In this document: piece after piece, positions 33,884 to 64,000 of the stretch
Layout of the letters: every line of letters begins with the position of its first letter
How positions within the stretch are numbered: the stretch's first letter is position 1
NCBI RefSeq assembly: GCF_000143415.4
Contig: NW_003314320.1
Location: 494,586-558,585 of the forward strand
Length of the DNA: 64,000 bases
From: Selaginella moellendorffii
Lineage: Eukaryota; Plantae; Lycopodiophyta
Direction: 5' to 3'
Program-made: the position numbers and the translations under genes
Notes under the pieces: generated by a model
Databases searched by the model: none
What the model saw: only the letters and a program-made list of their open reading frames with translations
Told to the model about the DNA's origin: nothing

Positions 33884-33999
33884 ATTACTTCGAAGGGCCA
33901 CCCATGGTATCTTTGTTATAGCGATGGTTTTTAAAATGTTTTCCACCGTTAAACAAAAGTTCTCAACTTGTCCTATGTTGAGGTTGTACATACTCGCGC

Positions 34000-35520: not shown

Positions 35521-35576
35521 TATCGTTCAAGAAGCTCGAACTTTAGAGAGGAAACTACGAACACTCGTGCAAAGCT

Positions 35577-36719
35577 CTAATAATCACGTGGTAAATCGGG
35601 CAAATGTGACAAAATGTTGCGAGACAAGGCTTCCCCACCGTCAGGAATATAGAAGTAAGCTCCCGCATCGATTGGCGCAGTATCAGAGCCCTGTACCAGC
35701 TTGTTAAAGAACGAGTCCACCACCGAATACTCGAACACATCTCTGTCTCCAGTTATCCAAAAGAGGTCATAGTCATCAGACACCACCTCGGCCAACTCAG
35801 GGCTCAGGATATTGGCTGCATCCAGCCGCGTCGGAAGCTCCACCACCTTTCCCTCATCAACCAGTAGCTCATACAGTCTTGGAGTATCGAATCCCCTGCC
35901 CTCTCGTAGCTCTTCCTCCTGGTCAAACACCTTAAGGCCGTACATGAGGGTCTTGCCTCGCCGTTCCACCACCTTTTTTTCTGTCCCAAACTCGAATTTG
36001 CGGGCAGATTCACGGCTCAGGTGCATCTTGTCCCATACTCCACCCGATTCTATAAGCACCAATCCCTCGCAATAGCTGGCAGGGGCGATGAGAAGCCCTA
36101 ATCCACGACCGTGGGCGAGCTGCCAGCGGCAGCATTGGTTCCATAACTTGGAGACGCTGCAGTAGCGTGCCAGATCCCGCCGACCCAGATTTGTGACGAT
36201 CAAAGCTACCAGCTCTTCGCAGCACAATGCCTTCCGTTTAAACCCAAAATGTTTCGAGTTGCTGAGATTCTGGATCAGTTCACGCTTGAGCGGTTTAAAA
36301 GGACACAGGTCAAGAAAGGTCAGGTTTCGTGGTTTCTTCGTGCAGCATTGTCTTGAGGGATGCCTATTCCGGGAAATGTTGCGATCATAGTAGTCTAAGA
36401 GCTTGTGCAGAGTGTTTCCCAGGCCACTGAATTCATCTCCGTGGAGCCGCTCGACAGAGAAAGGGGGACGCAATGCTCGCGAGGGCGATTTTATCGGGCC
36501 GCCATCTTCCAAACCTCTGCCAAGAGCCACTATGTTTACTTGAGGAGATGTCGATCTCAAAGAAGAGCGTCTCCAGCCGTGCTTGCTCGGGAGCGAGGTC
36601 CGAAACCAGCTCGTGAGCAATGACTTCCACGATTTGGACAATGGAGTGCATTTCCGTACCGCTAGATACTTGTCTTTCACGTAGACCATGGCTATGGCGC
36701 GTGCGCTGTGGGGCGCCAT
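35577..36719 (-). CDS. Chimeric, internally deleted F-box gene (possibly pseudogene)
   Basis: EELVALIVTNL..DLARYCSVSKLW F-box preceded by ~165 unrelated residues; lacks two blocks present in the 39073 paralogue. Confidence 0.6.
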   Translation of the reverse strand: MAPHSARAIAMVYVKDKYLAVRKCTPLSKSWKSLLTSWFRTSLPSKHGWRRSSLRSTSPQVNIVALGRGLEDGGPIKSPSRALRPPFSVERLHGDEFSGLGNTLHKLLDYYDRNISRNRHPSRQCCTKKPRNLTFLDLCPFKPLKRELIQNLSNSKHFGFKRKALCCEELVALIVTNLGRRDLARYCSVSKLWNQCCRWQLAHGRGLGLLIAPASYCEGLVLIESGGVWDKMHLSRESARKFEFGTEKKVVERRGKTLMYGLKVFDQEEELREGRGFDTPRLYELLVDEGKVVELPTRLDAANILSPELAEVVSDDYDLFWITGDRDVFEYSVVDSFFNKLVQGSDTAPIDAGAYFYIPDGGEALSRNILSHLPDLPRDY

Positions 36720-36979
36720 GGATTTTCGAAGGTAAGCAACCCATTTAAATGGCTTTACGATTGCTCCAACACCTCGTAGATCAGACGAGCGTGCAAAGAT
36801 CTAATATTTAGATCCGTTTTGCGGCTACCATGGACTTTCGAGGTAAAATATTTCTCTTCTCTTGAGCTTCCGTTTTCACTGCTCTATAAGATGGTAATAA
36901 GCTCTTCTTCTTGCTTGGCAGATCACAAGCCATCTCGTCATGAAAACCTCAGGAGAAGCAGCATCACTCCTCCCTGGAA

Positions 36980-38600
36980 TACACATTCTTTCATCAGATC
37001 CTCAGGACTCATCTGTGATCTTCGATCTGAAGTCCGCTTGGAAAGAGGCAAAGAGATTCACGCTCGTGCCACTGAGAGTGGCAAACGCCATCATCTATGT
37101 CGCGAACTCTCTGATCGGTGTACGCAAAATGTGGCAGGATGGCCGAAGCTCGCCGTGCCTTCAACACAGCTCCAACCGTTGTTTCATGGAACTCTCTCAT
37201 CCTCGGCTACGCTGACAATGGAGAAGCTTTCCAGGCACTGGAACTTTTCGCAAGAATCGCAAACCTCTCCACGATCTCGCCAGACCGCGCGACGTTTCTG
37301 GCGGCTCTCAAAGCTTGCAGCAAGATAGCAGCGATCGAAAAAACCGATTTTCTTAATCGCGGGAGCTCCAAGTTCGTCAAGATCAAGAGCCTCGGGTGGT
37401 ACACTGTTGATGCGAGCAAGCCGGATGGCACACAGACATGCTCGTCGCCAGCGCTTTGATCGACGTCGACGCGTATGGGAAATCCTGCCGCTCGGATGAT
37501 CTTCGAGAGAATGGAAACTCACGACGTTGTCTCGTGGACTTCCATGATCTCGGGATTAGAACTGTTCCAAGAATTCATGGCGAGCAGCACTAATCGATCC
37601 AGTGCCAGGAGTTTTGTGGGCGCTCAAGTCGTGTTCTGGGCTGGCCGCGAGGGAAGAACGGCGAAGTTTTCTGGAAAGTTGGCGGCGATCAAGATGGTGC
37701 GAGCTATATTTCTCCACAGCGAGGCAGCAAAGAGAGGTTTTGATCTGGACGTGTTCGTCGCGAGCACGCTGGTGGATCTCTACGCAAAGTGTGGAAGCGT
37801 GGATCTAGCTCGAGCGGTGTTTGACAAGCCTGATCATCGCCAATCCAGTTGCCAGGCAGCGATGGCGCTGGATGTCTTCTCGCAGATGACGATGCTGGAT
37901 AGATTTTTGGGACGATCGTCGTGGCCGCCAATGCGTGCACGAGCATGGCTGCCAGCGAGCAATCATCCCGAATCCCCGAATCCATCGATAGCGATGGAGG
38001 TGTTTGTGTGATCAAAGTGGAGACGATCCACGCGAGCGCTCGCGGTCTGAGGATCGATTGTGGCCTCAATACGTACTCCAAGTGTGGAGCACGATCGACG
38101 CGCACAGGATCTTCGCCGGAACGAAGACCCGGCGCCTTGGAACGTTTTGATCCTCGGCTATGGCCAGCCCCAGGAGTCCCTGGCACTGCTCGCGGCGATG
38201 CGGTCATCTCGCTCGATCGTCGCACTGCGACGAATCTGGAAGGAATTCGCAAGCTCCACGCCGAGATCGACCGCGCGAGCCATGAAATGGGGCGAGATCT
38301 CATCGACCCGGTCGTGGCGAGCTGCCTGGTGGATGCGTATGGGCGATGCGGCAGCATGGACGAGGCCGAGAGATTCTTCGCCTCTTCCTCGTCGTCGGGA
38401 GGTCTCATCTCCTGGAGCGCTCTCGTCGTGGGATTTAGCCGCCTATGCGACGCAGAAAGGGCAGGAGATCTGGGCACGTGGGTGGCCGCGTGTGAGGAGC
38501 TCCTCAATGTCCAAGAGAAAGAACGTGCTCCTCGGCATGGCCGCCGTTTACCACGATTGACTAACCTTGACCATCTGGACAAACAGATTGCTTCCTATCG
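36980..38600 (+). pseudogene. Degraded PLS-PPR gene
   Basis: YAKCGRMAEARRAF..VVSWNSLILGYA, VASTLVDLYAKCGS, LVDAYGRCGSMDEA motifs spread over several frames. Confidence 0.85.
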
Positions 38601-38629
38601 AAGAAAAACCATGCTCGACACCATGTGAC

Positions 38630-38790
38630 ATTTCCTCAGTATATCTCGTCGAAAACTTTCTTTATGCCCGCTCTGGGCATATGCTCCGGCCAAGATGTTC
38701 CACGAGAAAACGTTTGGATTCGCAATCCCTCGAAACACCAATCTCTCTGCGCGATGATCTCCTGGCGGCAGCTCTACCGTAAAATATTCT
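38630..38790 (-). pseudogene. PPR fragment, opposite orientation
   Basis: VFRGIANPNVFSWNILAGAYAQSGH. Confidence 0.6.
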
Positions 38791-39072
38791 CGTTTTTGCT
38801 GACCTGGACTTTCGCTGACATGTTGTGTGCTCACAAATAAATCACATCAATTGTTAGCCGCTACAAATCTGTTGGACTTGGTAACCATGGATGCAGGTCT
38901 CTCATCTGCAAAAGAAATTCGACGTCTAGCACCTCCCACTTCACAACCCCATCACAGTAAATCACACTTGGCTTGATGAACTCCAAGTAAAGAACCGTCA
39001 CCTTCTTGGGAAGTGTATTTCCACGAATGAGAAAATGAACTGCACCTCCGGGTGACACTACGACACAATGCT

Positions 39073-40141
39073 CTAATAATCATGTGGTACATCAGGCAAA
39101 TGTGACAAAATGTTGCGAGACAAGGCCTCCCCGCCGTCAGGAATATAGAAGTAAGCTCCCGGGAGGTATAAATTCGGCGCAGCATCAGAGCCCTGTACCA
39201 GCTTGTTGAAGGACAAATCGGCCACCGAATACTTGAACACATTTCTGTCTCGAGTTATCCAAAAGAGGTCATAGTCATCAGACACCACCTCGGGCAACTC
39301 AGGGCTCAGGATGTTGGCTGCGTCTAGCCGCGTCAGAAGCTCCACCACCTTTCCCTGATCAGCCAGTAGCTCATACAGTCTTGGAGTGTCGAATCCCCTG
39401 CCCTCTCGTAGCTCCTCCTCCTGGTCAAACACCTTAAGAGTATACATGAGGGCCTTGCCTCGCCATTCTACCACCTTTTTCTCTATCCGGAGGCACTCGA
39501 ATTTGCGAACAGATTCACGTCTCATGTTCATCTTGTCCCACACTCCACGCCTCAGATCCAGCTTGTAAATATCATCAAACACGTAGTCATGCCCATGCGT
39601 CAACTTTTCGAAGAGCCTGTAGCAGCCGCCCCTGAGTAAGACGCATTCCTCGATAAGAGCGATCCTCCTCGACGGGCGGCAAACATCTATCCAAGAATCG
39701 TTGGCGAAATCGTACTTTTGCACGGCGCCGGACTTGTCGATGATGAGGATGAGAAGCTGGCCTTGCACACGACCCAGCCAAGCCGATATTGCATCAATCC
39801 GCGGCCTCCACAAGAGCTTCCATCGCTTCACGCTGGGCTCGCCAATCGCCAGCACCCCATCCGATTCTATAAGCACCAATCCCTCGCAAGTTCCCAGCAC
39901 AGCCGAATCAGAGATACCTAGTGGCACCCACTGCTCCTCCCCAGTGTTGGAATCGCGCATCCATAGCTTGGATCCTTCGGTAGGGGCGATGAGAAACCCT
40001 AATCCGCGGCCGTGGGCGAGCTGCCAGCGGCAGCACTGGTTCCACAGCTTGGAGACGCTGCAGCACCGTGCCAGATCCCGCCGACCCAGATACGTGACGA
40101 TCAGAGCTACCAGCTCTTCGCAGCACATCACCATCGCCCAT
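39073..40141 (-). CDS. F-box protein with beta-propeller-like C-terminus; intronless
   Basis: MCCEELVALIVTYL..DLARCCSVSKLWN, CEGLVL, EP..KRWKLL, YDFANDSW; C-terminus appears to continue in another frame to ~38861. Confidence 0.75.
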
Positions 40142-41024
40142 GCCTTCCTCCCCATTCCACAAACCTAAAAATGTGCACGCATACTTTCAAGCATGGATAT
40201 AAATATTTATCGTCCTCGTGGAGAAATTCACTCTCGCAAAGACAACTTTGATTTACAACCAAAAAGTAACCAAGGTAAAAATAATTTTGAATAATATTTA
40301 GTTTGCTTAATAGTAATGTTATTCCTATTTAATAATTTAACTAATCAAATGGAAATTTATAATTATAAACATATTTATAAGCAAGGAGTGTATGCAAGCA
40401 ACCCAAAGATCTAAAGGAAGCTGCTTGATAAGTTTTTCATATGCTTTTCTCATATATAAGTTTCTCATGCTTCATCATCTAGGCATGATTCAGACTTAGA
40501 TCAAATGCCTAATCGCAAGTGGGAGTGCTAATAGTAGATAATGTAGCATGTAGCAGGTAGTCGCCAGTTCTTTCTATACGCAGTACCTAGTGGTTCTAAA
40601 GAGTCTTTCTTGTGTGCTATCTCTCATTTGCGCTCCTGCACAACAACTCTATGCTCTTGTATAAGAACAAACTACATATATATATTTATAATTTATAAAC
40701 TTTTTCAAATCCCTTCTAGCTTATTCTAATCTTATTTATAGTTTATAAACTAATGCTCAATTACTGGACAATAGATTAATATAACTTGTTTCTTAAGATT
40801 TTATGATTTTAAGCTAATGTGTGAGATAAAAACTAAACATTTTGTTTGTCAAAAAAATGATCAAAAACTTTTTTTCGTTGTGTTATTAATATTTTTTATT
40901 AAGTTTTGGCAAATAGTTTCTTAATAAACTAATTGTTATCATAATATATATTATTTAAAATACACAAAAAAGGTTTTGCAAAGAATTAAAAAATAAAACA
41001 AATTTTACCATTAGAGGACACACT

Positions 41025-41185
41025 GGACAAGGCCACTATCCTCAATGCTTGCTCTATCTTTTAGTGAGTTTCGAGTGCATTCTTCAGTGTGGCTACCACT
41101 CACACTTGATCGTTAGCAATTGCATCATGACGATGTATAGCGCCTAGGATGCTGGCCGACTCCTGACAACTTCACGTTCATCGAT
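41025..41185 (+). pseudogene. Collapsed fragment of the 28790 PPR gene
   Basis: Matches 30150-30470 (GAGTGCATTCTTCAGTGTGGCTAC, TGCATCATGACGATGTATAGC, AGGATGCTGGCCGA) with many deletions. Confidence 0.8.
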
Positions 41186-41204
41186 GAACGTTGGAAGTAC
41201 CAAA

Positions 41205-41885
41205 TAGTTGTTTTCTAGAACAGTTTGTGGAACGATTCTTTTTCCCAGTTTGGAAGACCAGTCAGTGTGAATCATCGCTTGGGGCAAAAGTCTCATTGAT
41301 GCATTTTACCAGCTTATCGACACGGATTAGCACACTTCCAGGTGACTTTGTTTTCGATTGGCTCGCTCGTTCGTGACATTCAAATTATCAGGGACCCGGA
41401 TGCTCTTGCTTATGCCATCCAGCATTCTTGCGAGAACAAGGCAGAGGTTGTATCGCTTGACGAGAAGGAAGCTAAATCTTGGGCATATGTTTGGACATGT
41501 AAGTTCTCTCTCCCTAAATTTTCTTTTTCCTTTCCAGTCGATGCTTCTAGGCTATAGAGACAGGAATTGGCTACGGAGGTTGGCTGCACGGAGAAGCCGT
41601 AGCTGCTGGAACCGTAAGTGCCAAAACTTCGATTTTTTGCTTCCTAATGGCTGCGGATCTTTGGGATGGATAGAGACTTCTCTTCGGCCTCGGATCTTAA
41701 ATTTGATAGAGCGTGAAAGATCCAGTTGCACCCCCCAGCACAATGACAGTCGAAAAGTTTCTGGAGCTTCGTTTTCCTAGAGTAGAGCAAGAAACATGGT
41801 TTTCTTCTTTCTTACTGCTAGAGAAGATGGTTGTGGACGGGGATTTGAGACTTATACAACTCAAAGGCGAGCTTGGAAATTGCAT
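41205..41885 (+). pseudogene. Degenerate duplicate of the 3' half of DHQS, introns retained
   Basis: Colinear with 32910-33817 ([45 protein letters not shown]); frameshifts and deletions. Confidence 0.9.
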
Positions 41886-48147: not shown

Positions 48148-51100
48148 TGTAAGGAACCAACTCCCCGAGATGTCGTAGGTTAAAGGATCCCCAAAAGCTT
48201 GACCGAAATGACAAAGAGTTCATCGGATGGGACCAAGTCGAGGATCGAGTCCAAGACCGACTCTAGGACCGAGTTCGAGATAGAGTCCGGAATCGAGTCC
48301 GAGACCGACTCGGGGACCGAGTTCGAGTCCGAGTTCGAGACCGAGTTCGAGACGGAGTCCGGATCCGAAATCGGGTCCGAGACCGAGTCCGAGGTCGAGT
48401 CCGAGGTCGGGTCCGAGATCGGGTCCGAGATCGAGTCCGTGATCGAGTCCGAACCCGAATCCGAAGTCGGATCCGAAATCGGGTCCGAGATCGAGCCAGA
48501 GACTAAGTCCAAATACTAATACGGGTCAAGGGGTGAAAGCCCAAAGCGTGCGTCTCCCAAGGGGGGGGGGGCTGCAGGGGGTTCCAAAAGTATAGTAGGG
48601 ATAGTGAGGTCCAGGAACCAGTTTTGAAGGGACTCTCCAGTTGGGCTTCCAAACCGACTTGAGGTTGAGACTGGGACCGAGGGGCCTTGGGTGGGAGTGA
48701 GCATGGACTTGGCTGGTGCCGGAGGGGCCATCCAAGGAAGTGCTCAAGAGCAGCTCCCACTCCCGAAAGGGAAACCGATTGCGGTGCTCCCGGCTCATGT
48801 GGAGTGGTGCCCCACTTGAGTACCATGCGGCTCATTGGTCCTCGCCCTTCCTAGGGGCTTGGGCCTTCCTTCGGGATGGAAGTGGGGGGCGAGAGGTACC
48901 CATACCGGGCCGCTAGGCCACGGTGTTTCGCCCCGGCATCCCGAAGCAAGTGTTGCACTCAAGACTTGGGATTTAGAGGGTCCCATGATCAAGTCTTGTG
49001 GTACCAAGGGATGTTAGGAACCTGGAAGCTTGGTGTGCTTGGCTGCTTGTGCTTGCGGGGAGTGTAGCCGAACCTTAAGTCCAGTCTAACCCGGGGAGGG
49101 GGATTGGGAGTGATTTGGGAATCCGTGGAAGGATGACTAACACCCCGTTGCTCGTGCAGTGAGTAGCTGAAACCAAGTAGGAGCTGGTACCATAGGCGAG
49201 AACCTTGGCGAGGGGACTTAGCAAAAGCCAAGGCAGTGTTGGACGGATAGACGAGGTAAGCTGGCAAATTGGAAAAGAAAAATTTGTGGCTTACAATTTG
49301 GTATCGGAGCTTTTATCTCAGTTCTAGCGAAGGATAGAGGCGGATTGCTGGGAGATGGCAAGGGCAGGGCGTAAGCAAACCCAGGCGGAGACGGAACCTC
49401 CGCCGGAGCTGGAGCCTCCGGTTGAACAAGAGGCTATGGATGAGGAATCCTTGCATGAGGAGGACTCTAGTGAGGAAACTTCCAAACAGGAGTCCGGTGG
49501 CGAGGTTCGGTCGTCCAAGGCTCGATTGGACGTGCTAGAAGGACAGTTGGCACAGACCAATGCCCTGTTGGAGACTCTCGTACGCAAGTTAAAGCGTGAC
49601 GAGAAGCGGAAGAAAAAGCGAAAGACTGCGGATGAAGGCAGCGCAGAAGGTGCGGACCCTTCGGCAGGGACTGAGGCAAAACCAGACAAGGTCGAACAGA
49701 CCGAAGTGGAATCAGTCCCTCAGGCAGTTCCCAAGTACAAACCAAAGCCCCCACCGGTGTTCAAGGGAGTGAACGACTATAAGGTTGTGGAGGATTGGTT
49801 TTACGATATGGAGGACTACTTCCGAGCGTTACGGTTACCGAGCTCGGAGAAGGTCCCATGTGCAAAACCATACTTGGCAGATAATGCCAAGTCTTGGTGG
49901 AGAACAACGGAGGCCAATGAAGGACCGGTGACCACCTGGGACATGATGAAGGTGAGGATCCGCGCGACATACGTTCCTCCGAATGCCACTCTGCATCTGA
50001 GAGATGAGCTGAGTAGGCTGAAGCAGACTGGAACCATCCAGGAATATGTGAATGGGTTCATGGCAAAGAGGATACTTGTCACGGACATGGGGGATATGGA
50101 TGTTTTCCATGCCTTTATATCAGGTTTGCAAACCTGGGCTCGCGGTGAGGTGATGCGCTGGAACCCGACCAACTACAAGGAAGCGTTGGATGCGGCCATC
50201 AAGGTGCATTTCAACGATAACCTGCGAAAGGGGAACACGACGGGGTCGGGATCCACGTTTCACAAAGGGGCCAAACCGAGGGGAACATATAGCAGGGGGA
50301 AATTCAAGAAGAGTTTCTCTAAGAATGAGTCCTCGGGATTCCGGAAAGGCAAATCCGGTGGCCAGCGAGCAAGTACGTGGGGGAGTCAAGCGAAAAGAGA
50401 CAAACCCATGGATAAGAAGGTCAAGTCATATAGCAGCGTGGGAAACAACGTATGCTACAACTGCGGTGAAGCGGGACACTTTTCGAGGGAATGTCCCTAC
50501 CCGAAGAAGGCCAGAGCCAATATGGCCATCAAGTCGGGTGAAGTCCAAAATGAGGTATGTGATCCAGTCCCTAACTCAAAGTTACTCATTACACGAGCAA
50601 CTTTGGTAGAGAGTCGTTCGCGACATCTACTAGCCCTCCGAGGGAAGCTCGGAGGTAGCTTTGTTAAGATCCTTATTGACAGGGGTGCTTCGGATAATTT
50701 TGTGGCTGCAGACATAGTCCGGCAAGCCGGACTAACGGTGCAGCGGCTAGGTGAACCAAGGACTATAGAGTTTGTTCAAGGTAGCCAAAGCACCAATGAG
50801 GTACTTCGACAAGCGAGAGTCGAAGTGGGGACATGGAAAGTGGACATGGATTTCACCGTCTTGGACATGGCGGGATTTGACGTGATCTTCGGAATGGATT
50901 GGTTTAATCGGTTCGTGGTAGCCCTGCATGGACAAGGTAGGAACCTTGTGGTATTGGCGAATGCCCAAGGAAGAAGATCTAGGGTGGAGGCCCAGGATCT
51001 AAAGGTAGGGCAAAGCAAGGCCAAAGAGTCATGCTTAAACCTGGTGTCCACGAGAGGACAACTCACTAAAGGAACTAAGGCAGCCTTTTTGTGCTTACTC

Positions 51101-52884
51101 TCGGTGAAGAGTGACAAAAAGACAAGAACGGAAGAAGTACCTTTAGTGATCCAGCAGGTGCTGGACCAATTCCAGGATACGATGCCGGAGGAGCTACCGG
51201 CGGGGTTGCCCCCCGCACGACCGATAGAACATAAGATTGAGCTAGTCGAGGGTGCTGAGGCGGTGGTTCGTCCACCCTATCGATTGAACGAAAAAGAACT
51301 CAAGGAGCTCAAGAGCCAACTAGAGGAGTTGGTGGACAAAGGGTATGTTAGGTTGAGCAAGTCGCCGTATGGGGCGCCGGTGCTATTTGTGAAAAAGAAA
51401 GATGGATCTATGCGCATGTGCATAGACTACCGGTTGCTCAACAAGTATACCAAGAAGAACAAGTACCCTTTGCCAAGGATCGAGGACCTGTTCGATAGGT
51501 TGGGAAAGGCAAAATACTTCTCGAGGATTGACCTAAGGTCAGGATACTACCAGATCAGGGTAGCTGAGGAAGATGTCGAGAAGACAACCTGTCGAACGAG
51601 GTATGGGAGCTTTGAGTTTCTGGTGATGCCCTTTGGGCTGTGCAATGCGCCGGCAACGTTTTCGGCGTTGATGAACCACATCTTTGTACCCTATCTGGAT
51701 CACTTCGTGGTCGTCTATATTGACGACATCCTGATCTATAGCGAGATGCTAGAGGAGCATGCCGAACACTTGGCGAAGGTGTTTGAGAAACTAAGGGAAC
51801 ACAAACTGTATGCTAAAGAGAGCAAATGTGACTTTGCTCAACAAGAGGTAAAGTTTCTCGGGCATGTGGTGGGCCAGGACGGGCTCAAGGTGGACCCGGA
51901 GAAGGTCCAAGCGATCCAGGATTGGGAGAGACCATCGAATGTACATGAGTTGAGGGCATTCCTGGGGCTATGCAACTACTATCGAAAGTTTATCAGACAC
52001 TATTCGAGAGTAGCCCTGCCCTTAACGGACCAAACAGGAAAAGGGAAGATGGTATGGACAGCAGAATGCGAGACGGCATTCGTCCACCTCAAAGGGAAGT
52101 TGAGGAAGGCTCCCGTATTGGCATTGCCAGACTTTGGTAAGGACTTTGAGGTAGAAACGGATGCTTCGGACTTTGCGTTGGGCGCAGTTCTGAAGCAAGA
52201 CAACCATCCGGTAGCGTTCTTCTCGAAGAAGCTGGACAAGGCTCAACGGAAGTGGCCTGCCCACGAGAAGGAATTGTTTGCGGTGGTCAAGGCACTCAAG
52301 GAGTGGCGACACTACCTTGGGAGACACTTCAAGGTTTACACGGACAATGTGGCAACGAAACACTTCTTGTCACAGCCCGACCTAAGAGGGAAACAAGGTC
52401 GGTGCGCCAATGCCTTAGCCGAGTTTGATTGCGAAATTCTGTACAAGCCTGGGAAGAGCAACATCGTGGCGGATGCGCTAAGTCGAAAAGCGAGCTTGAA
52501 GTTGGCAATATCCAGCGCAACAGCAACCTTCTGGGACGATGTGCGGACAGCATATGAGAACGATGGTCTAGCACAGGAAGTGTTGCTGAGGAATCTAGAG
52601 GCGCGGGAAGCTCACCAGAGAGGTGAGCTGCCAACGGAAGAGAAAACGGGCTATGCAGAACGCAACGGACTCATTTATTACAAGCAAACGAGGGTGTATG
52701 TTCCAGAAGGGGAACTAAGGAAGGTGGCCTTAGAAGAGTGTCATGACGGACCTCTTGCGGGACACGGTGGAGTGCCCAAGACGATGGGCTTACTCAAAAG
52801 GAAGTACCATTGGCCAGATATGGCTAAGGACATCCAAGACTATGTAAAGACATGCCCAAAATGTCAGCAGGTAAAAGCCGTGAC
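48148..52884 (+). mobile_element. Ty3/gypsy chromovirus copy 1, 3'-truncated (5' LTR 48148-49295, PBS 49299-49310)
   Basis: LTR TGTAAGG..CTTACA; PBS TGGTATCGGAGC (tRNA-iMet type); gag-pol breaks off after the integrase HHCC motif. Confidence 0.95.
48230..48510 (+). repeat. Degenerate hexamer array (GAGTCC/GAGACC/GAGTTC/GAGATC) in the LTR; also at 53430-53695 and 59800-60065
   Basis: 6/12-bp periodicity seen directly in all three LTRs. Confidence 0.92.
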
Positions 52885-52951
52885 CAGGCACAAGCAGCCA
52901 AGCACACCAAGCCTCCAGATTCCTAACACCCCTTGGTACCACAAGACTTGA
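49355..52951 (+). CDS. Gag-Pol (Gag, CCHC knuckle, protease, RT, RNase H, integrase N-terminus), truncated
   Basis: [21 protein letters not shown] (DTG changed to DRG), [30 protein letters not shown]; last ~22 aa read from the antisense LTR. Confidence 0.92.
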
Positions 52952-55900
52952 TCATGGGACCCTCTAAATCCCAAGCCTTGGGTGCAGCACTTGCTTTGGG
53001 ACGTCGGGGCGAAACACCGTGGCCTAACGGCCCGGTATGGGTACCTCTACCCCCCCTCTTCCATCCCGAAGGGAAGGTCCAAGCCCCTGGAAGGGCGAGG
53101 ACCAAAGAGCCACAAGGTACTCAAGTGGGGCACCACTCCACCTGAGCCGGGAGCACCGCAGTCGGTTTCCCTTTCGGGAGTGGGAGCTGCTCTTGAGCAC
53201 TTCCTTGGATGGCCCCTCCGGCACCAGCCAAGTCCATGCTCACTCCCACCCAAGGCCCCTCGGTCCCAGTCTCAACCTCAAGTCGGTTTGGAAGCCCAAC
53301 TGGAGAGTCCCTTCAAAACTGGTTCCTAGACCTCACTATCCCTACTATACTTTTGGAACCCCCTGCAGCCCCCCCCCCCTGGAAGACGCACGCTTTGGGC
53401 TTTCACCCCTTGACCCGTATTAGTATTTGGACTTAGTCTCTGGCTCGATCTCGGACTCGATTTCGGATCTGACTTCGGATTCGGTCTCGGACTCGATTTC
53501 GGACTCGATCTCGGACCTGACCTCGGACTCGACCTCGGACTCGGTCTCGGACCCGATTTCGGATCTCGGACTCTGTCTCAAACTCGGTCTCGAACTCGGA
53601 CTTGAACTCGGTCCCCGAGTCGGTCTCGGACTCGATTCCGGACTCTATCTCGAACTCGGTCCTAGAGTCGGTCTTGGACTCGATCCTTGACTTGGTCCCA
53701 TCCAATGAACTCTTTGTCATTTTGGTCAAGCTTTTGGGGATCCTTTAGCCTACGACATCTCGGGGAGTCGGTTCCTTACAACTCCACCACCCATAGAAGA
53801 AGTTCGATGCCCACATCGAACGTCTCATTTTATCCTACGACTTGTTGACCATGTCTCTGGGGGCATCCCCCCACTTAGCAGTGTGCCTAAGTTAGCCTCC
53901 CCGGCCAAGAGCCCATGACAACGGAATATAGGTGTCCCTATACTCCTCACCTCACCATGCCCTAGTATGGGGTCGGGACTTGAACCCAGCCTTGCTTTAC
54001 TAGGGGGTTGGGACTCGAACCCAACCTCCGTAGAATACGTCTACGGATTCGACATCCCCGCGGGGAGTCGGGCGTAGTGCCCTACGCCTGGTCGACCTAT
54101 CCAACCCATGCTAATTAGCTTACCTTTGGCGCGCCTTCGGGTCCCAACATATTGCACTTGCTCAACTTTGCAAATTGATATTTTTAATTGAATTTTGCAT
54201 AAGTACATAGAGTTCTGCCTTGCAGAAATTCCTCCACTAGATCTCGAGCGTTCGCTAGGTTCTCCTCCGGTTCCCATGTTGCTTCGCAGTGTGGAAATCC
54301 TTTCCACTTCACATGGAACTCTCTCACCTCGCGTCCTTGTCGCTTGCTTTTGCGCACATTGAGGATGGCCTCGACTTCGTATTCCTCTTCCCCTTGGATA
54401 ACCTCAGGCAAAGGTCTCACTTGGTCCTTGCGAAGCGGATCCTCAAAGTACGGCTTGAGTAAGTTCATGTGGAACACTGGGTGCATCTTCCCCATCTCTC
54501 GAGGAAGTCGGAGTCGCTAAGCCACTTTACCGATTCGTGCCTCAATCTCGTAAGGCCCCGCGAACCTGCTTAAGGAACTCAAGATCAATTCATTTACAGG
54601 AATACATGCATCTTTACCTTTGGGTCAACTTTCGGCTGATCCCACTTGGTAGTCTGAGGTTCTTGGTGTTCAGCCACACCTTCTCCCCAGCTTGGAACTC
54701 TACATCCCGACGCTTCTGGTTCGCGTATTTGGTTTGCCTTTGTTGAGCCCGTTCCAAGGAATCCCTCACTAGATTCCAAATGCTGAGTCTTTCCGCTGTG
54801 AATGCCTCCACTGCGGGCAACTCTCCATGATACTCGGCCACGCCGAGTTCCACAGGACCTTCAATAGCTCGCCCATTGATGACTTCCCATGGACTCACCC
54901 CGATACTCGAATGTGGTGAGTTGTTATAACACATTTCTGCAAGTCCCAAATGACTTACCCAATCGGTCTGGTCTCCCGAGACATAGCATCGCAAATAATC
55001 CTCCAACTGCCTATTCACCCTTTTCGTTTGTCCGTCTGTCAAGAAGTGTTAGTGCCAACAACTTGACTTAATACCCCATACCTGTCTGTGGGTGATAGGC
55101 TGTGCTGAATTTCAACTTGGTGCGATACTGTTCGAGGAGAGTCCTCCAGAACCTACTGGTGAAGATCTTATCTCGATCTGAGATGATCTCTTCTGGTCTT
55201 CCCCGCACTCGAACCACTTGCTCAAAGAACAGCTTTGCCACACCTTCCGCATCCACCTCCGTTGTGGTGGGTATGAAATGTGCCATTTTTGAAAATCGGT
55301 CCACCACCACGAATATCGCATCAAACCCCTCGCTTGGGGGGAGTCCCGTGATGAAGTCCATCGTAAGACATTTCCACGGGCGATCTGGAATTGGGATGCT
55401 TTGCAACAAGCCCCCACTAGCCTTAGTCACGGCTTTTACCTGCTGACATGTTGGACATGTCTTTACATAGTCTTGGATGTCCTTAGCCATATCTGGCCAA
55501 TGGTACTTCCTTTTGAGTAAGCCCATTGTCTTGGGCACTCCACCGTGTCCCGCAAGAGGTCCGTCATGACACTCTTCTAAGGCCACCTTCCTTAGTTTCC
55601 CTTCTGGAACATACACCCTCGTTTGCTTGTAATAAATGAGTCCGTTGCGTTCCGCATAGCCCGTTTTCTCTTCCGTTGGCAGCTCACCTCTCTGGTGAGC
55701 TTCCCGCGCCTCTAGATTCCTCAGCAACACTTCCTGTGCTAGACCATCATTCTCATATGCTGTCCGCACATCGTCCCAGAAGGTTGCTGTTGCGCTGGAT
55801 ATTGCCAACCTCAAGCTCACTTTTCGACTTAGCGCATCCGCCACAATGTTGTTCTTCCCAGGCTTGTACAGAATTTCGCAATCAAACTCGGCCAAGGCAT

Positions 55901-58900
55901 TGGCCCACCGACCTTGTTTCCCTCTTAGGTCGGGCTGTGACAAGAAGTGTTTCGTTGCCACATTGTCCATGTAAACCTTAAAGTGTCTCCCAAGGTAGTG
56001 TCGCCACTCCTTGAGCGCCTTGACCACCGCAAACAATTCCTTCTCGTGGGCAGGCCACTTCCGTTGAGCCTTGTCCAGCTTCTTCGAGAAGAACGCTACC
56101 GGATGGTTGTCTTGCTTCAAAACTGCGCCTAACGCAAAGTCCGAAGCATCCGTTTCTACCTCAAAGTCCTTACCAAAGTCTGGTAATGCCAATACAGGAG
56201 CCTTCCTCAACTTCCCTTTGAGGTGGACGAATGCCGCCTCGCATTCCGCTGTCCACACCATCTTCCCTTTTCCTGTTTGGTCCGTTAAGGGCAAGGCTAC
56301 TCTCGAATAGTGTCTGATAAACTTTCGATAGTAGTTGCATAGCCCCAGGAATGCCCTCAACTCATGTACATTGGATGGTCGCTCCCATTCCTGGATCGCT
56401 TGGACCTTCTCCGGGTCCACCTTGAGCCCGTCCTGGCCCACCACATGCCCGAGAAACTTTACCTCTTGTTGAGCAAAGTCACATTTGCTCTCTTTAGCAT
56501 ACAGCTTGTGTTCCCTTAGTTTCTCAAACACCTTCGCCAAGTGTTCGACATGCTCCTCTAGCGTCTCGCTATAGATCAGGATGTCGTCGATATAGACGAC
56601 CACGAAGTGATCCAGATAGGGTACAAAGACGTGGTTCATTAGCGCCGAAAACGTTGCCGGCGCATTACATAGCCCGAAGGGCATCACCAGAAACTCAAAG
56701 CTCCCATACCTCGTTCGACAGGTTGTCTTCTCGACATCTTCCTCGGCTACCCTAATCTGGTAGTATCCTGACCTTAGGTCAATCCTCGAGAAGTATTTTG
56801 CCTTTCCCAACCTATCGAACAGGTCCTCAATCCTTGGCAAAGGGTACTTGTTCTTCTTTGTATACTTGTTGAGCAAGCGGTAGTCTATGCACATGCGCAT
56901 AGATCCATCTTTCTTTTTCACAAATAACACCGGCGCCCCATACGGCGACTTGCTCAACCTAACATACCCTTTGTCCACCAACTCCTCTAGTTGGCACTTG
57001 AGCTCCTTGAGTTCTTTTTCGTTCAAACGATAAGGGGGACGAACTACTGCCTCAGCACCCTCGACCAGCTCAATCTTATGTTCTATCGGTCGTGCTGGGG
57101 GTAGCCCCGCCGGTAGCTCCTCCGGCATGGTATCCTGGAATTGGTCCAACACCCGTTGGATCACTAAAGGTACTTCTTCCATTCCTGTCTTTTTGTCACT
57201 CTTCACCGAGAGTAAGCACAAAAAGGCTGCCTTAGTTCCTTTAGTGAGTTGTCCTCTCGTGGACACCAGGTTTAAGCAGGAATCTTTGGCCTTGCTTTGC
57301 CCTACCTTTAGATCTTGGGCCTCCACCCTAGATCTTCTTCCTTGGGCATTCGCCAGTACCACAAGGTTTCTACCTTGTCCATGCAGGGCTACCACGAATC
57401 GATTGAACCAGTCCATTCCGAAGATCACGTCAAATCCCGCCATGTCCAACACGGTGAAGTCCATGTCCACCTTCCAAGTCCCCACTTCGACTCTCGCTTG
57501 TCGAAGTACCTCATCGGTGCTTTGGCTACCTTGAACAAACTCTATAGTCCTTGGCTCGCCTAGCCGCTGCACCGTTAGTCCGGCTTGCCGGACTATGTCT
57601 GCAGCCACAAAATTATCCGAAGCACCCGTGTCAATAAGGATTTTAACAAAGCTACCTCCGAGCTTCCCTCGGAGGGCTAGTAGATGTCGCGAACGATTCT
57701 CTACCAAAGTTGTTCGTGTAATAAGTAACTTTGAGTTAGGGACTGGATCACATACCTCTGTTTGGACTTCACCCGACTTGATGGCCATATTGGCTCTGGC
57801 CTTCTTCAGGTAGGGACATTCCCTCGAGAAGTGTCCCGCTTCACCGCAGTTGTAGCATACGTTGTTTCCCACGCTGCTATATGACTTGACCTTCTTATCC
57901 GTGGGTTTGTCTCTTTTCGCCTGACTCCCCCACGTACTCGCTCGCTGGCCACTGGATCTGCCTTTCCGGAACCCTGAGGGCTCATTTTTAGAGAAACTCT
58001 TCTTGAATTTCCCTCTGCTAAACGTTCCCCTTGGCTTGGCCCCTTTGCTAAACGTGGATCCCGACCCTGTCGTGTTCCCCTTTTGCAGGTTATCGTTGAA
58101 ATGCACCTTGATGGCCGCATCCAACGCTTCTTTGTAGTTGGTCGGGTTCTACCGCATTACTTCGCCGCGAGCCCAGGTTTGCAAACCTGATATGAAGGCA
58201 TGGAACGCATCCATATCCCCCATGTGCGTGACAAGTATCCTCTTTGCCATAAACCCATTCACATACTCCTGAATGGTTCCGGTCTGCTTCAGCCTACTCA
58301 GTTCGTCCCTTAGATGCAGAGTAGCATTCGGAGGAACGTAAGTTGCGCGAATCCTCGCCTTCATCATTTCCCAAGTGGCCACCGGTCCTTCATTGGCCTC
58401 TGTCGTTCTCCACCAAGACTTGGCATTATCTGCCAAGTATGGTTTTGCACATGGGACCTTCTCCGAGCTTGGTAATCGCAATGCTCGGAAGTAGTCCTCC
58501 ATATCGTAAAACCAATCCTCCACCACCTTATAGTCATTCACTCCTTTGAAGACCGGTGGGGGCTTTGGTTTGTACTTGGGAACTGCCTGAGGGACTGATT
58601 CCACTTCGGTCTGTTCGACCTTGTCTGGTTTTGCCTCAGTCCCTGCCGAAGGGTCTGCACCTTCTGCGCTGCCAGCATCCGCAGTCTTTCGCTTTTTCTT
58701 CCGCTTCTCGTCACGCTTTAGCTTGCGTACGAGAGTCTCTAGCAGGGCATTGGTCTGTGCCAATTGTCCTTCTAGAACATCCAATCGAGCCTTGGATGAC
58801 CGAACCTCACCACCAGACTCCTGTTTGGAAGTTGTCTCACTGAAGTCCTCCTCATGCAAGGATTCCTCATCCATCGCCTCCTGTTCGACTGGAGGCTCCA

Positions 58901-60150
58901 GCTCTGGAGGAGGTTCTGTCTTTGCCTGGGTTCGCTTACGTCCTGCCCTTGCCATCTCCCAGCAATCCGCCTCTATCCTTCGCTAGAACTGAGGAAGACG
59001 CTCCGATACCAAATTTTAAGCCACAAATTTTTCCTTTCCAATTTGCCAGCTTACCTCGCCTAACCGACCAACTCTGCCTTGGCTCGCACTAAGTTCCCTC
59101 GCCAAGGTTCTCGCCTATGGTACCAGCTCCTACTTGGTTTCAGCTACTTACTGCACGAGCAACGGAGTGTTAGCCATCCATCTACGGATTCCCAAATCTC
59201 TCCCAATCCCCCTCCCCGGGTTAGACTGGACTTAAGGTTCGGCTACACTCCCCGCAGGCACAAGCAGCCAAGCACACCAAGCCTCCAGATTCCTAACACC
59301 CCTTGGTACCACAAGACTTGATCATGGGACCCTCTAAATCCCAAGCCTTGAGTGTAGCACTTGCTTCGGGACGTCGGGGCGAAACACTGTGGCCTAACGG
59401 CCCGGTATGGGTACCTCTACCCCCCCTCTTCCATCCCGAAGGGAAGGCCCAAGCCCCCGGAAGGGCGAGGACCAAAGAGCCACAAGGTACTCAAGTGGGG
59501 CACCACTCCACCTGAGCCGGGAGCACCGCAGTCGGTTTCCCTTTCGGGAGTGGGAGCTGCTCTTGAGCACTTCCTTGGATGGCCCCTCCGGCACCAGCCA
59601 AGTCCATGCTCACTCCCACCCAAGGCCCCTCGGTCCCAGTCTCAACCTCAAGTCGGTTTGGAAGCCCAACTGGAGAGTCCCTTCAAAACTGGTTCCTAGA
59701 CCTCACTATCCCTACTATACTTTTGGAACCCCCTGCAGCCCCCCCCCCCTGGAAGACGCACGCTTTGGGCTTTCACCCCTTGACCCGTATTAGTATTTGG
59801 ACTTAGTCTCTGGCTCGATCTCGGACTCGATTTCGGATCTGACTTCGGATTCGGTCTCGGACTCGATTTCGGACTCGATCTCGGACCCGACCTCGGACTC
59901 GACCTCGGACTCGGTCTCGGACCCGATTTCGGATCTCGGACTCTGTCTCGAACTCGGTCTCGAACTCGGACTCGAACTCGGTCCCCGAGTCGGTCTCGGA
60001 CTCGATTCCGGACTCTATCTCGAACTCGGTCCTAGAGTCGGTCTTGGACTCGATCCTTGACTTGGTCCCATCCAATGAACTCTTTGTCATTTTGGTCAAG
60101 CTTTTGGGGATCCTTTAGCCTACGACATCTCGGGGAGTCGGTTCCTTACA
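52885..60150 (-). mobile_element. Chromovirus copy 2: 5' LTR 59015-60150, PBS 59000-59011, internal region, PPT ~53782-53792, remainder of 3' LTR 52885-53780
   Basis: Near-identical LTRs 6370 bp apart; complete gag-PR-RT-RH-IN-chromodomain order. Confidence 0.95.
54184..58955 (-). pseudogene. Gag-Pol-chromodomain of copy 2 with introns 55036-55081 and 54566-54617
   Basis: After removing both introns the frame is continuous except TGG>TAG at 58149-58151 and TAC>TAG at 54517-54519; integrase catalytic E is K; chromodomain YEVEAIL..FHVKWKGF..TWEPEENL. Confidence 0.9.
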
Positions 60151-63100
60151 ACTCCACCACCCATAGAAGAAGTTCGATGCCCACATCGAACGTCTCGTTT
60201 TATCCTACGACTTGTTGACCATGTCTCTGGGGGCATCCCCCCACTTAGCAGTGTGCCTAAGTTAGCCTCCCCGGCCAAGAGCCCATGACAACGGAATATA
60301 GGTGTCCCTATACTCCTCACCTCACCACGCCCTAGTATGGGGTCGGGACTTGAACCCAGCCTTGCTTTACTAGGGGGTTGGGACTCGAACCCAACCTCCG
60401 TAGAATACGTCTACGGATTCGACATCCCCGCGGGGAGTCGGGCGTAGTGCCCTACGCCTGGTCGACCTATCCAACCCATGCTAATTAGCTTACCTTTGGC
60501 GCGCCTTCGGGTCCCAACATATTGCACTTGCTCAACTTTGCAAATTGATATTTTTAATTGAATTTTGCATAAGTACATAGAGTTCTGCCTTGCAGAAATT
60601 CCTCCACTAGATCTCGAGCGTTCGCTAGGTTCTCCTCCGGTTCCCATGTTGCTTCGCAGTGTGGAAATCCTTTCCACTTCACATGGAACTCTCTCACCTC
60701 GCGTCCTTGTCGCTTGCTTTTGCGCACATTGAGGATGGCCTCGACTTCGTATTCCTCTTCCCCTTGGATAACCTCAGGCAAAGGTCTCACTTGGTCCTTG
60801 CGAAGCGGATCCTCAAAGTACGGCTTGAGTAAGTTCACGTGGAACACTGGGTGCATCTTCCCCATCTCTCGAGGAAGTCGGAGTCAGTAAGCCACTTTAC
60901 CGATTCGTGCCTCAATCTTGTAAGGCCCCGCGAACCTGCTTAAGGAACTCAAGATCAATTCATTTACAGGAATACATGCATCTTTACCTTTGGGTCAACT
61001 TTCGGCTGATCCCACTTGGTAGTCTGAGGTTCTTGGTGTTCAGCCACACCTTCTCCCCAGCTTGGAACTCTACATCCCGACGCTTCTGGTTCGCGTATTT
61101 GGTTTGCCTTTGTTGAGCCCGTTCCAAGGAATCCCTCACTAGATTCCAAATGCTGAGTCTTTCCGCTGTGAATGCCTCCACTGCGGGCAACTCTCCATGA
61201 TACTCGGCCACGCCGAGTTCCACAGGACCTTCAATAGCTCGCCCATTGATGACTTCCCATGGACTCACCCCGATACTCGAATGTGGTGAGTTGTTATAAC
61301 ACATTTCTGCAAGTCCCAAATGACTTACCCAATCGGTCTGGTCTCCCGAGACATAGCATCGCAAATAATCCTCCAACTGCCTATTCACCCTTTTCGTTTG
61401 TCCGTCTGTCAAGAAGTGTTAGTGCCAACAACTTGACTTAATACCCCATACCTGTCTGTGGGTGATAGGCTGTGCTGAATTTCAACTTGGTGCGATACTG
61501 TTCGAGGAGAGTCCTCCAGAACCTACTGGTGAAGATCTTATCTCGATCTGAGATGATCTCTTCTGGTCTTCCCCGCACTCGAACCACTTGCTCGAAGAAC
61601 AGCTTCGCCACACCTTCCGCATCCACCTCCGTTGTGGTGGGTATGAAATGTGCCATTTTTGAAAATCGGTCCACCACCACGAATATCGCATCAAACCCCT
61701 CGCTTGGGGGGAGTCCCGTGATGAAGTCCATCGTAAGACATTTCCACGGGCGATCTGGAATTGGGATGCTTTGCAACAAGCCCCCACTAGCCTTAGTCAC
61801 GGCTTTTACCTGCTGACATGTTGGACATGTCTTTACATAGTCTTGGATGTCCTTAGCCATATCTGGCCAATGGTACTTCCTTTTGAGTAAGCCCATCGTC
61901 TTGGGCACTCCACCGTGTCCCGCAAGAGGTCCGTCATGACACTCTTCTAAGGCCACCTTCCTTAGTTTCCCTTCTGGAACATACACCCTCGTTTGCTTGT
62001 AATAAATGAGTCCGTTGCGTTCCGCATAGCCCGTTTTCTCTTCCGTTGGCAGCTCACCTCTCTGGTGAGCTTCCCGCGCCTCTAGATTCCTCAGCAACAC
62101 TTCCTGTGCTAGACCATCATTCTCATATGCTGTCCGCACATCGTCCCAGAAGGTTGCTGTTGCGCTGGATATTGCCAACCTCAAGCTCACTTTTCGACTT
62201 AGCGCATCCGCCACGATGTTGTTCTTCCCAGGCTTGTACAGAATTTCGCAATCAAACTCGGCCAAGGCATTGGCCCACCGACCTTGTTTCCCTCTTAGGT
62301 CGAGCTGTGACAAGAAGTGTTTCGTTGCCACATTGTCCATGTAAACCTTAAAGTGTCTCCCAAGGTAGTGTCGCCACTCCTTGAGCGCCTTGACCACCGC
62401 AAACAATTCCTTCTCGTGGGCAGGCCACTTCCGTTGAGCCTTGTTCAGCTTCTTCGAGAAGAACGCTACCGGATGGTTGTCTTGCTTCAAAACTGCGCCT
62501 AACGCAAAGTCCGAAGCATCCGTTTCTACCTCAAAGTCCTTACCAAAGTCTGGTAATGCCAATACAGGAGCCTTCCTCAACTTCCCTTTGAGGTGGACGA
62601 ATGCCGCCTCGCATTCCGCTGTCCACACCATCTTCCCTTTTCCTATTTGGTCCGTTAAGGGCAGGGCTACTCTCGAATAGTGTCTGATAAACTTTCGATA
62701 GTAGTTGCATAGCCCCAGGAATGCCCTCAACTCATGTACATTGGATGGTCGCTCCCATTCCTGGATCGCTTGGACCTTCTCCGGGTCCACCTTGAGCCCG
62801 TCCTGGCCCATCACATGCCCGAGAAACTTTACCTCTTGTTGAGCAAAGTCACATTTGCTCTCTTTAGCATACAGCTTGTGTTCCCTTAGTTTCTCAAACA
62901 CCTTCGCCAAGTGTTCGACATGCTCCTCTAGCGTCTCGCTATAGATCAGGATGTCGTCGATATAGACGACCACGAAGTGATCCAGATAGGGTACAAAGAC
63001 GTGGTTCATTAGCGCCGAAAACGTTGCCGGCGCATTACATAGCCCGAAGGGCATCACCAGAAACTCAAAGCTTCCATACCTCGTTCGACAGGTTGTCTTC

Positions 63101-64000
63101 TCGACATCTTCCTCGGCTACCCTGATCTGGTAGTATCCTGACCTTAGGTCAATCCTCGAGAAGTATTTTGCCTTTCCCAACCTATCGAATAGGTCCTCAA
63201 TCCTTGGCAAAGGGTACTTGTTCTTCTTTGTATACTTGTTGAGCAAGCGGTAGTCTATGCACATGCGCATAGATCCATCTTTCTTTTTCACAAATAACAC
63301 CGGCGCCTTATACGGCGACTTGCTCAACCTAACATACCCTTTGTCCACCAACTCCTCTAGTTGGCACTTGAGCTCCTTGAGTTCTTTTTCGTTCAAACGA
63401 TAAGGGGGACGAACTACTGCCTCAGCACCCTCGACCAGCTCAATCTTATGTTCTATCGGTCGTGCTGGGGGTAGCTCTGCCGGTAGCTCCTCCGGCATGG
63501 TATCCTGGAATTGGTCCAACACCCGTTGGATCACTAAAGGTACTTCTTCCATTCCTGTCTTTTTGTCACTCTTCACCGAGAGTAAGCACAAAAAGGCCGC
63601 CTTAGTTCCTTTAGTGAGTTGTCCTCTCGTGGACACCAGGTTTAAGCAGGAATCTTTGGCCTTGCTTTGCCCTACCTTTAGATCTTGGGCCTCCACCCTA
63701 GATCTTCTTCCTTGGGCATTCGCCAGTACCACAAGGTTTCTACCTTGTCCATGCAGGGCTACCACGAATCGATTGAACCAGTCCATTCCGAAGATCACGT
63801 CAAATCCCGCCATGTCCAACACGGTGAAGTCCATGTCCACCTTCCAAGTCCCCACTTCGACTCTCGCTTGTCGAAGTACCTCATCGGTGCTTTGGCTACC
63901 TTGAACAAACTCTATAGTCCTTGGCTCGCCTAGCCGCTGCACCGTTAGTCCGGCTTGCCGGACTATATCTGCAGCCACAAAATTATCCGAAGCACCCGTG
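59015..64000 (-). mobile_element. Chromovirus copy 3, tandem with copy 2 through the shared LTR 59015-60150; runs off the window
   Basis: 60151-64000 repeats 53781-57630 at offset 6370 with few substitutions. Confidence 0.95.
60554..64000 (-). pseudogene. Pol-chromodomain of copy 3 with introns 61406-61451 and 60936-60987
   Basis: Same intron sequences as copy 2; CGA>TGA at 60884-60886; catalytic E is K. Confidence 0.88.

Follow-up and report, generated by a model that had tools for sequence, protein, structure and literature searches.

Introns in reverse-transcribing elements

Reverse transcription is expected to purge introns from the elements that replicate by it, and this expectation is the basis of the classic retrotransposition assay. 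In LTR replication, an RNA without the primer-binding site (PBS) supports neither the start of the minus strand nor the second strand transfer. A splice donor in the R region is also known from the deltaretroviruses, and the leader splices of CaMV cross the PBS. The PBS is needed for the priming of reverse transcription, and plant LTR elements are described as generally without introns, save for cases such as Ogre and EVADE (2025 review; PMC12786077).

In the foamy viruses the major donor lies in R of the LTR, 5' to the PBS (PMC5035957); Pol comes from a spliced RNA that, given this arrangement, is without the PBS (PMC5035957; PMC3738957). Removal of the PBS by splicing is therefore not new to retroelements, and the earlier note on the DNA studied here was wrong to hold as a general rule that the major retroviral donor lies downstream of the PBS. 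The foamy intron is long, reaching pol or env, and Gag is made from genomic RNA (PMC5035957; PMC3738957). In CaMV, a pararetrovirus that does not integrate, the leader donors D4 and Db of the 35S RNA splice to acceptors in ORF I or II; the sites are many and redundant, and the introns are ORF-changing and hundreds of bases long (PMC4498817).

Among LTR retrotransposons, EVD and BARE1 of the copia superfamily contain an intron, spliced optionally and with a frameshift, where gag meets protease; its removal leads to Gag only, and their unspliced full-length RNA encodes the whole polyprotein (PMC5580714; PMC3735527). In BARE, translation and replication draw on different RNA pools (PMC3735527). 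Ogre, a non-chromovirus of the Ty3/gypsy Tat clade, retains one intron between protease and RT that must be spliced out for the whole polyprotein (PMC6317226), and Cer1 makes an export protein from spliced RNA (PMC10309623). In the portions of these accounts that treat splicing, no PBS-removing intron is reported for EVD or BARE1 and no PBS excision for Ogre (PMC5580714; PMC3735527; PMC6317226). SM1-Galahad is a Galadriel-clade chromovirus of Selaginella moellendorffii of ~7.5 kb, with a tRNA-Met PBS, LTRs of 1076/1146 with a poly-G tract, and copies ~95% alike (PMC3350952). Its consensus, drawn from many copies, comprises a 1295-aa first ORF without a chromodomain and two short ORFs; no intact copy was found, and broken frames were read in that sense (PMC3350952).

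The element and its family

Three related gypsy-element pieces (copies A, B and C) lie inside the window, by which is meant the whole 64-kb stretch of DNA that was analysed. Their parts are as follows:

48148..49295, forward strand: 5' LTR of copy A, 1148 nt, TGTAAG...CTTACA, with an 11-G tract and a 12-nt tandem array
49355..52884, forward strand: gag-pol of copy A (Pfam gag, CCHC, protease, RT, RNase H, H2C2)
59015..60150, reverse strand: middle LTR common to the tandem copies B and C, 1136 nt, end AA and not CA
55068..58955, reverse strand: first ORF of copy B, 1295 codons, one internal stop, terminating within intron I1
54184..54565, reverse strand: last coding exon of copy B, chromodomain-like end, with a stop 15 codons in
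53781..54183, reverse strand: 3' UTR of copy B, polypurine tract at its end, donor-like site at 54123, five palindromes
52885..53780, reverse strand: first 896 nt of the 3' LTR of copy B, the last 50 nt lying at 48147-48098
60151..64000, reverse strand: internal region of copy C, in tandem with B, introns I1 (61451-61406) and I2 (60987-60936) retained
48231-48500, 53389-53702 and 59759-60072: U3 repeat arrays

The element unit amounts to 7518 nt, with LTRs of 1148 and 1136 nt and a first ORF of 1295 codons. Its domain order, Gag-PR-RT-RH-IN, with LTRs, PBS and polypurine tract (PPT), is that of a Ty3/gypsy chromovirus (Pfam and sequence), and its last exon aligns with the C-terminal, chromodomain-bearing part of six relatives (tblastn). 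Copies A and B are 95% alike, and B and C are identical at 3826 of 3850 bases. The gag-pol of copy A is a single frame, ended past the integrase zinc finger (52884) by a rearrangement. This copy is interposed between the two parts of the copy B 3' LTR, having inserted 50 nt from the end of that LTR, with a later deletion joining the A integrase to it. Copy B carries stops in gag and in the last exon. The U3 of each LTR contains a degenerate 12-nt repeat array (6-nt subunit) upstream of the poly-G tract and a TATA-like box. A neighbouring gene is 100% identical to SELMODRAFT_428942 (Selaginella moellendorffii), and local duplications of host genes lie ~8 kb and 3.5 kb apart at window positions 33183-41883 (repeat families D5, D12, D13 and D17-D19).

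By host, size, LTR, poly-G tract, ORF length and downstream ORFs, the element appears to be SM1-Galahad, the match being to the published description. The two share the species, a length of ~7.5 kb, LTRs >1 kb with poly-G, a tRNA-Met PBS and the 1295-aa ORF, and differ in that the SM1-Galahad paper describes none of the four introns treated below, the string 'splic' being absent from its main text (PMC3350952). The family is a known one, and its four-intron structure appears undescribed. In an RT-RH tree of 50 rows (31 proteins, copy A and 18 of 20 chosen loci, two having been dropped for short matches), copy A clusters at 99/95 with elements of Riccia, Prunus, Xanthoceras, Citrus and others, in a set that included no labelled Galadriel reference. 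The searches found no polyprotein relative above 54% identity and, among proteins of 220-700 aa, no Gag relative at E 1e-15.

A 66-nt intron around the primer-binding site

The intron at issue (I0) had been proposed in the earlier note as one that excises the PBS:

49256..49321, forward strand: intron I0 of copy A, 66 nt, GT-AG; homologous interval skipped in the contigs of runs X2 and X3
58989..59054, reverse strand: intron I0 of copy B, PBS at 59011-59000; skipped in X2 and X3, retained in contig 8 of run X1
49299..49310, forward strand: PBS of copy A, tRNA-Met type

The proposed layout is borne out by the coordinates. The donor GAG|GTAAGC has its first intron base at 49256, 40 nt inside the LTR end; the 66-nt interval ends with CAG at 49321 and encloses the whole PBS (49299-49310), and the gag ATG at 49355 comes 33 nt later. 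From its 5' end, I0 consists of the last 40 nt of the LTR, a 3-nt spacer, the PBS, a pyrimidine tract and the acceptor. The PBS at 49299..49310 is of the tRNA-Met type, with one G-U wobble against the consensus. Copy B, the second copy of the earlier note, carries the same 66-nt layout at 59054-58989, and the tract has diverged with its pyrimidine richness kept, just as had been claimed: four of its six bases differ between A and B, and the last five intron bases are unchanged. No changes fall in the donor (0/9), the PBS (0/12), those last five bases (0/5) or the 33-nt exon (0/33). Run X1 shows three more substitutions in or beside the tract, which is still pyrimidine-rich.

A CTTAC does lie at the LTR terminus, as had been observed, and its reading as a branch-like motif was rejected. 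The branch-point consensus is CTRAY, from which its third base departs; the letters are those of the LTR terminal inverted repeat (TGTAAG...CTTACA), and the terminus of copy 2 reads CTTAA, so that its LTR is without the terminal CA.

In composition, I0 stands apart from its flanks (GC 0.36 vs 0.57, T 0.32 vs 0.14), being U-rich and GC-poor like the integrase introns I1 and I2. Since it has no internal ATG and no upstream ORF crosses it, its removal would alter no protein, and only the priming module would go. A donor-plus-acceptor pattern this strong is expected 0.55 times per 6370 nt (about the element length) in Markov shuffles; judged from sequence alone, I0 would be a weak candidate, not beyond chance. 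It is raised above chance because the X2 and X3 contigs skip exactly these 66 nt.

Relatives do not share the I0 layout: a donor of equal score occurs within 100 nt upstream in two of their 23 PBS sites (L047 and L079), both outside the close clade, and in none of the ten in the closer-looking group. At these two loci (L047:446-543 and L079:4369-4465), a strong donor before the PBS and a YAG after it form candidate sites that may be due to chance. The 17-nt donor pattern also had five matches in viral contigs, with no retrotransposon protein there by tblastn, and these were taken as chance.

Splicing in probably RNA-derived contigs

Reads and contigs were aligned to copy B (53790-59750), and the evidence for junctions consists of assembled contigs, not reads. 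Runs X2 and X3 are two samples of one study; their RNA nature is a guess, and none of the element-bearing runs listed is on record as RNA. Contigs of both join 58990 to 59089 with 32 letters between, a net skip of 66 nt that equals 59054-58989 with two shared letters. These 32 letters are left unaligned on copy B because they are closer to the copy A exon end (30/32 matches, vs 24/32 for B). With exactly 66 nt skipped in both samples, the proposed I0 is a real, used intron, with GT-AG ends, probably of the U2 type, and precisely removed in contigs from two samples of one study, and its junction is very probably genuine. The acceptor used is the first (58989, equivalent to 49321); the alternative at 49327, which had also been offered, was discarded, no use of it being seen in the X2 and X3 contigs.

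Contigs of X2 and X3 each also show skips of 46 nt (55081-55036) and 52 nt (54617-54566), both with GT-AG ends, and the integrase introns that the earlier note had presupposed are thus real and spliced. Among the contigs listed for these two samples, none retains I0, I1 or I2. A net 157-nt skip (57755-57599) is present in X2 and in X1, which comes from another study. In X1, I0 is retained in a contig (58884-59689) that starts at the likely start site, and I1 is retained also. Both forms of I0 therefore exist, as the idea of a switch demanded: spliced in X2 and X3, retained in X1. A simple all-or-none choice does not account for X1, in which intron G is removed but other contigs still contain I0 and I1.

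It is very improbable that the skips belong to DNA, namely to a processed or deleted copy assembled in X2 and X3. These samples are marked as RNA by guess only, but they contain three to four precise GT-AG skips and, among the contigs listed, none that contains the introns, despite the hundreds of copies in the family. Their contigs moreover stop near the predicted start site, whereas those of X10 and X6 run on beyond 59689-59692, and sample X18, from the same study, has almost none of the element's sequence words. The DNA-like run X10 (371 contigs, many variants, extending past the element ends) shows none of the four joints among the contigs listed; its contig 2 spans I2, and a contig ~14% diverged still enters I1. 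No joint was found in X6, in which 11 of 30 bins are covered. Three raw RNA runs (X19-X21), of each of which ~12% was sampled, gave 62, 25 and 44 aligned reads, most of them on a fragment of the LTR carried by a host transcript, with no joints and none in the I0 bin (58964-59162), and are uninformative. The fragment in question, a diverged piece of LTR 48764-49120 (=59546-59190), lies in sense in an expressed host transcript and occurs in all three runs.

Two features of the leader bear on where transcripts start and how the donor may fold:

48591..48597, forward strand: TATA-like box, by sequence; likely start near 48618-48621
49256..49294, forward strand: predicted hairpin of the donor hexamer with the LTR terminus (RNAfold -12.8 kcal/mol)

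The 5' ends of contigs in X2 (59692, =48618) and X1 (59689, =48621) fall 28-31 nt past the TATA-like box, a weak hint, from contigs that cannot show a start, that transcription begins near 48618-48621. Contig 17 of X3 runs from 59630 across the I0 junction to 58227, inside gag, which places the start 575 nt or more upstream of the donor; a start downstream of the donor, which would have undone the earlier proposal, is thereby excluded. The six bases immediately preceding the last base of the LTR are exactly complementary to the donor hexamer, and the hairpin has z -3.64 in copy A and z -1.72 in copy B (RNAfold), values for a segment picked after the pairing had been noticed and showing no covariation. 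An X1 variant at 59041 disrupts an inner pair. More speculatively, the predicted hairpin may keep the donor of the genomic RNA out of reach, or simply serve the start of reverse transcription. The segment from PBS to acceptor folds no better than shuffles (z -0.06 and -1.25), and the 191-nt leader has z -1.62. The leader (48620-49354) includes seven upstream ATGs ahead of gag and, at 49158, an acceptor-like site with a good branch motif, of which no use was seen in the X1, X2 and X3 contigs.

Introns in the integrase and at the gag-protease border

The remaining introns interrupt the coding region:

55036..55081, reverse strand: intron I1 of copy B, 46 nt, phase 1; tblastn frame break; skipped in X2 and X3
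54566..54617, reverse strand: intron I2 of copy B, 52 nt, phase 2; in the C-terminal part of integrase, before the chromodomain exon
50555..50711, forward strand: intron G of copy A, 157 nt, phase 0 after codon 400; homologous skip in X1 and X2
57599..57755, reverse strand: intron G of copy B, 157 nt; skipped in X1 and X2 contigs

I1 and I2 interrupt conserved motifs in exact phase, I1 splitting the HPQT/DGQ motif of the integrase core. In 77 related loci, 73/74 are intronless at I1 and 56/58 at I2, the exceptions being nearby frameshifts or deletions, and the motif is unbroken in 99/100 of the protein matches that bear it. Because relatives are continuous at both sites, I1 and I2 look like gains in this lineage, and since integrase works in these relatives without introns, there must be a cause for their retention across the family. 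Copies B and C and run X10 keep both, and every window copy that reaches any of the four intron sites retains the intron there; judging from the identical ORF layout, I1 and I2 would also be kept in the published SM1-Galahad consensus. Short direct repeats occur at the junctions of I1 and I2 (5 and 4 letters fit either side), with a possible bearing on intron gain.

One explanation of retention is that selection keeps the introns, copies that lose them failing or being silenced, or that the splices come from a single expressed, possibly host-tamed locus. One haplotype is common to X2 and X3 (4 and 7 contigs), which points to one or few expressed loci, the element is nearly silent in the three raw RNA runs, and rare intronless copies would escape the contigs. 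This explanation is nonetheless improbable: every window copy and X1 have undamaged splice signals, the expressed form follows the complete element in order, LTR to chromodomain, and relatives do well without I1 and I2.

Intron G, at the gag-protease border, is a fourth intron, absent from the earlier note. Upon its removal the protease active-site motif is lost and a stop follows one codon past the junction, giving a Gag-only message. The ORF of unspliced RNA ends within I1 and includes neither a whole integrase nor a chromodomain; whole Gag-Pol is obtained, by frames, when G is kept and I1 and I2 are removed. In a high-copy family with four introns, two of them in integrase, full-length RNA thus cannot double as the Gag-Pol message.

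A proposed division of RNA between message and genome

The reading preferred here, which is fairly probable, is that of a four-intron LTR retrotransposon in which removal of I0 marks an RNA as message-only, since no tRNA-primer site remains on it. At least three RNA classes would be formed: a Gag message, a Gag-Pol message and a fully unspliced genome. Splicing would be coupled, such that integrase-spliced RNA would nearly always also be without the PBS; the unspliced RNA would be the form copied, and the spliced RNA would serve for protein only. This coupling of I0 to I1 and I2 would be a main reason why the latter are not purged, by keeping spliced integrase out of cDNA. The chance that I0 is what mainly protects the integrase introns is about even. 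The stronger version is put forward tentatively, at slightly under even chances: genome and message would be fully split, with a genome without integrase coding capacity and messages that cannot be primed, and I0 would be the lock that enabled pol introns to be gained, retained and carried through hundreds of rounds of reverse transcription. Against the preferred reading, the I0 junction comes from one study, in two samples and as contigs, relatives do not have the I0 layout, and X1 departs from an all-or-none state. No contig joins I0 to I1 or I2, which lie 3.9 kb apart, so that the coupling is visible per sample only.

A rather unlikely but weightier alternative than those above is that I0 is an ordinary leader intron that acts in expression, export or U1 suppression of polyadenylation in the 5' LTR, the loss of the PBS being real but redundant; the integrase introns would then persist through the choice of unspliced RNA by Gag, or through messages that stop short of the PPT and R. 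Several precedents favour this account: in HIV-1 and in foamy viruses the 5' poly(A) site is suppressed by U1 bound at the major donor (PMC12789967), early termination is tied to splicing in EVD (PMC5580714), and the RNA pools of BARE are separated by start site and capping (PMC3735527). The X2 and X3 contigs, moreover, end at 54237 and 54227, 40-50 nt before the stop codon and ahead of the palindrome-rich 3' UTR, the PPT and R, so that an early 3' end could alone exclude the message from replication. Contig ends prove nothing, however, and X1 extends further 3'. Use of the acceptor 11 nt past the PBS shows that I0 does not act as a U1 decoy alone, and a leader intron ending at the acceptor-like site at 49158 would spare the PBS, yet that site is not seen in use. 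We infer that loss of the primer site preserves the introns, with packaging choice and an early 3' end as live rivals.

Compared with the systems described above, the element works like foamy-type leader splicing at the level of the donor, which lies in the LTR upstream of the PBS in both; it is not a member of that group, being a plant gypsy element. Unlike in foamy viruses, what is lost before gag is the priming module alone, through a 66-nt intron, and further introns lie within integrase. Gag and pol form one frame here, in place of a separate Pol from gag-skipping RNA, and no joint from the leader into pol is present among the X1, X2 and X3 contigs listed. CaMV shares the splicing of the leader of a reverse-transcribed pregenome, and differs in the pararetroviral traits, redundant sites and intron lengths given above. 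Intron G resembles the Gag splice of EVD and BARE1, but in a gypsy element. Ogre, another gypsy element, likewise keeps an intron whose removal the full polyprotein requires, and differs in clade and in the position of its single intron; 'Selaginella' and 'Galahad' are absent from five supplementary files of its survey, among which the main element table may not be included (PMC6317226). In a literature search that took in a minority of subscription papers, no report was found of SM1-Galahad splicing, of integrase introns in a retrotransposon, or of a micro-intron before gag by which just the LTR tip and PBS are lost.

The preferred reading, that I0 removal sets messages apart from genomes, would provide a compact and testable answer to how a retroelement divides its RNA between translation and replication, and it predicts obligatory action in trans. 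The element is also an apparent example of a retroelement lineage that has gained introns, and a warning that ORF-based surveys will class such families as dead.

Two minor observations concern the 3' end. The X2 and X3 contigs end shortly ahead of the stop codon and of an A/T-rich stretch, and messages may end there, before the PPT and 3' LTR. The 3' UTR contains five perfect palindromes of 8-12 nt in 400 nt (54174-54055, reverse strand), for which the shuffle mean is 1.5 and a count of five was reached in 13 of 500 shuffles. The palindromes may be dimerisation or packaging signals, or the strong donor-like site at 54123 may be one where U1 protects a poly(A) site close by.
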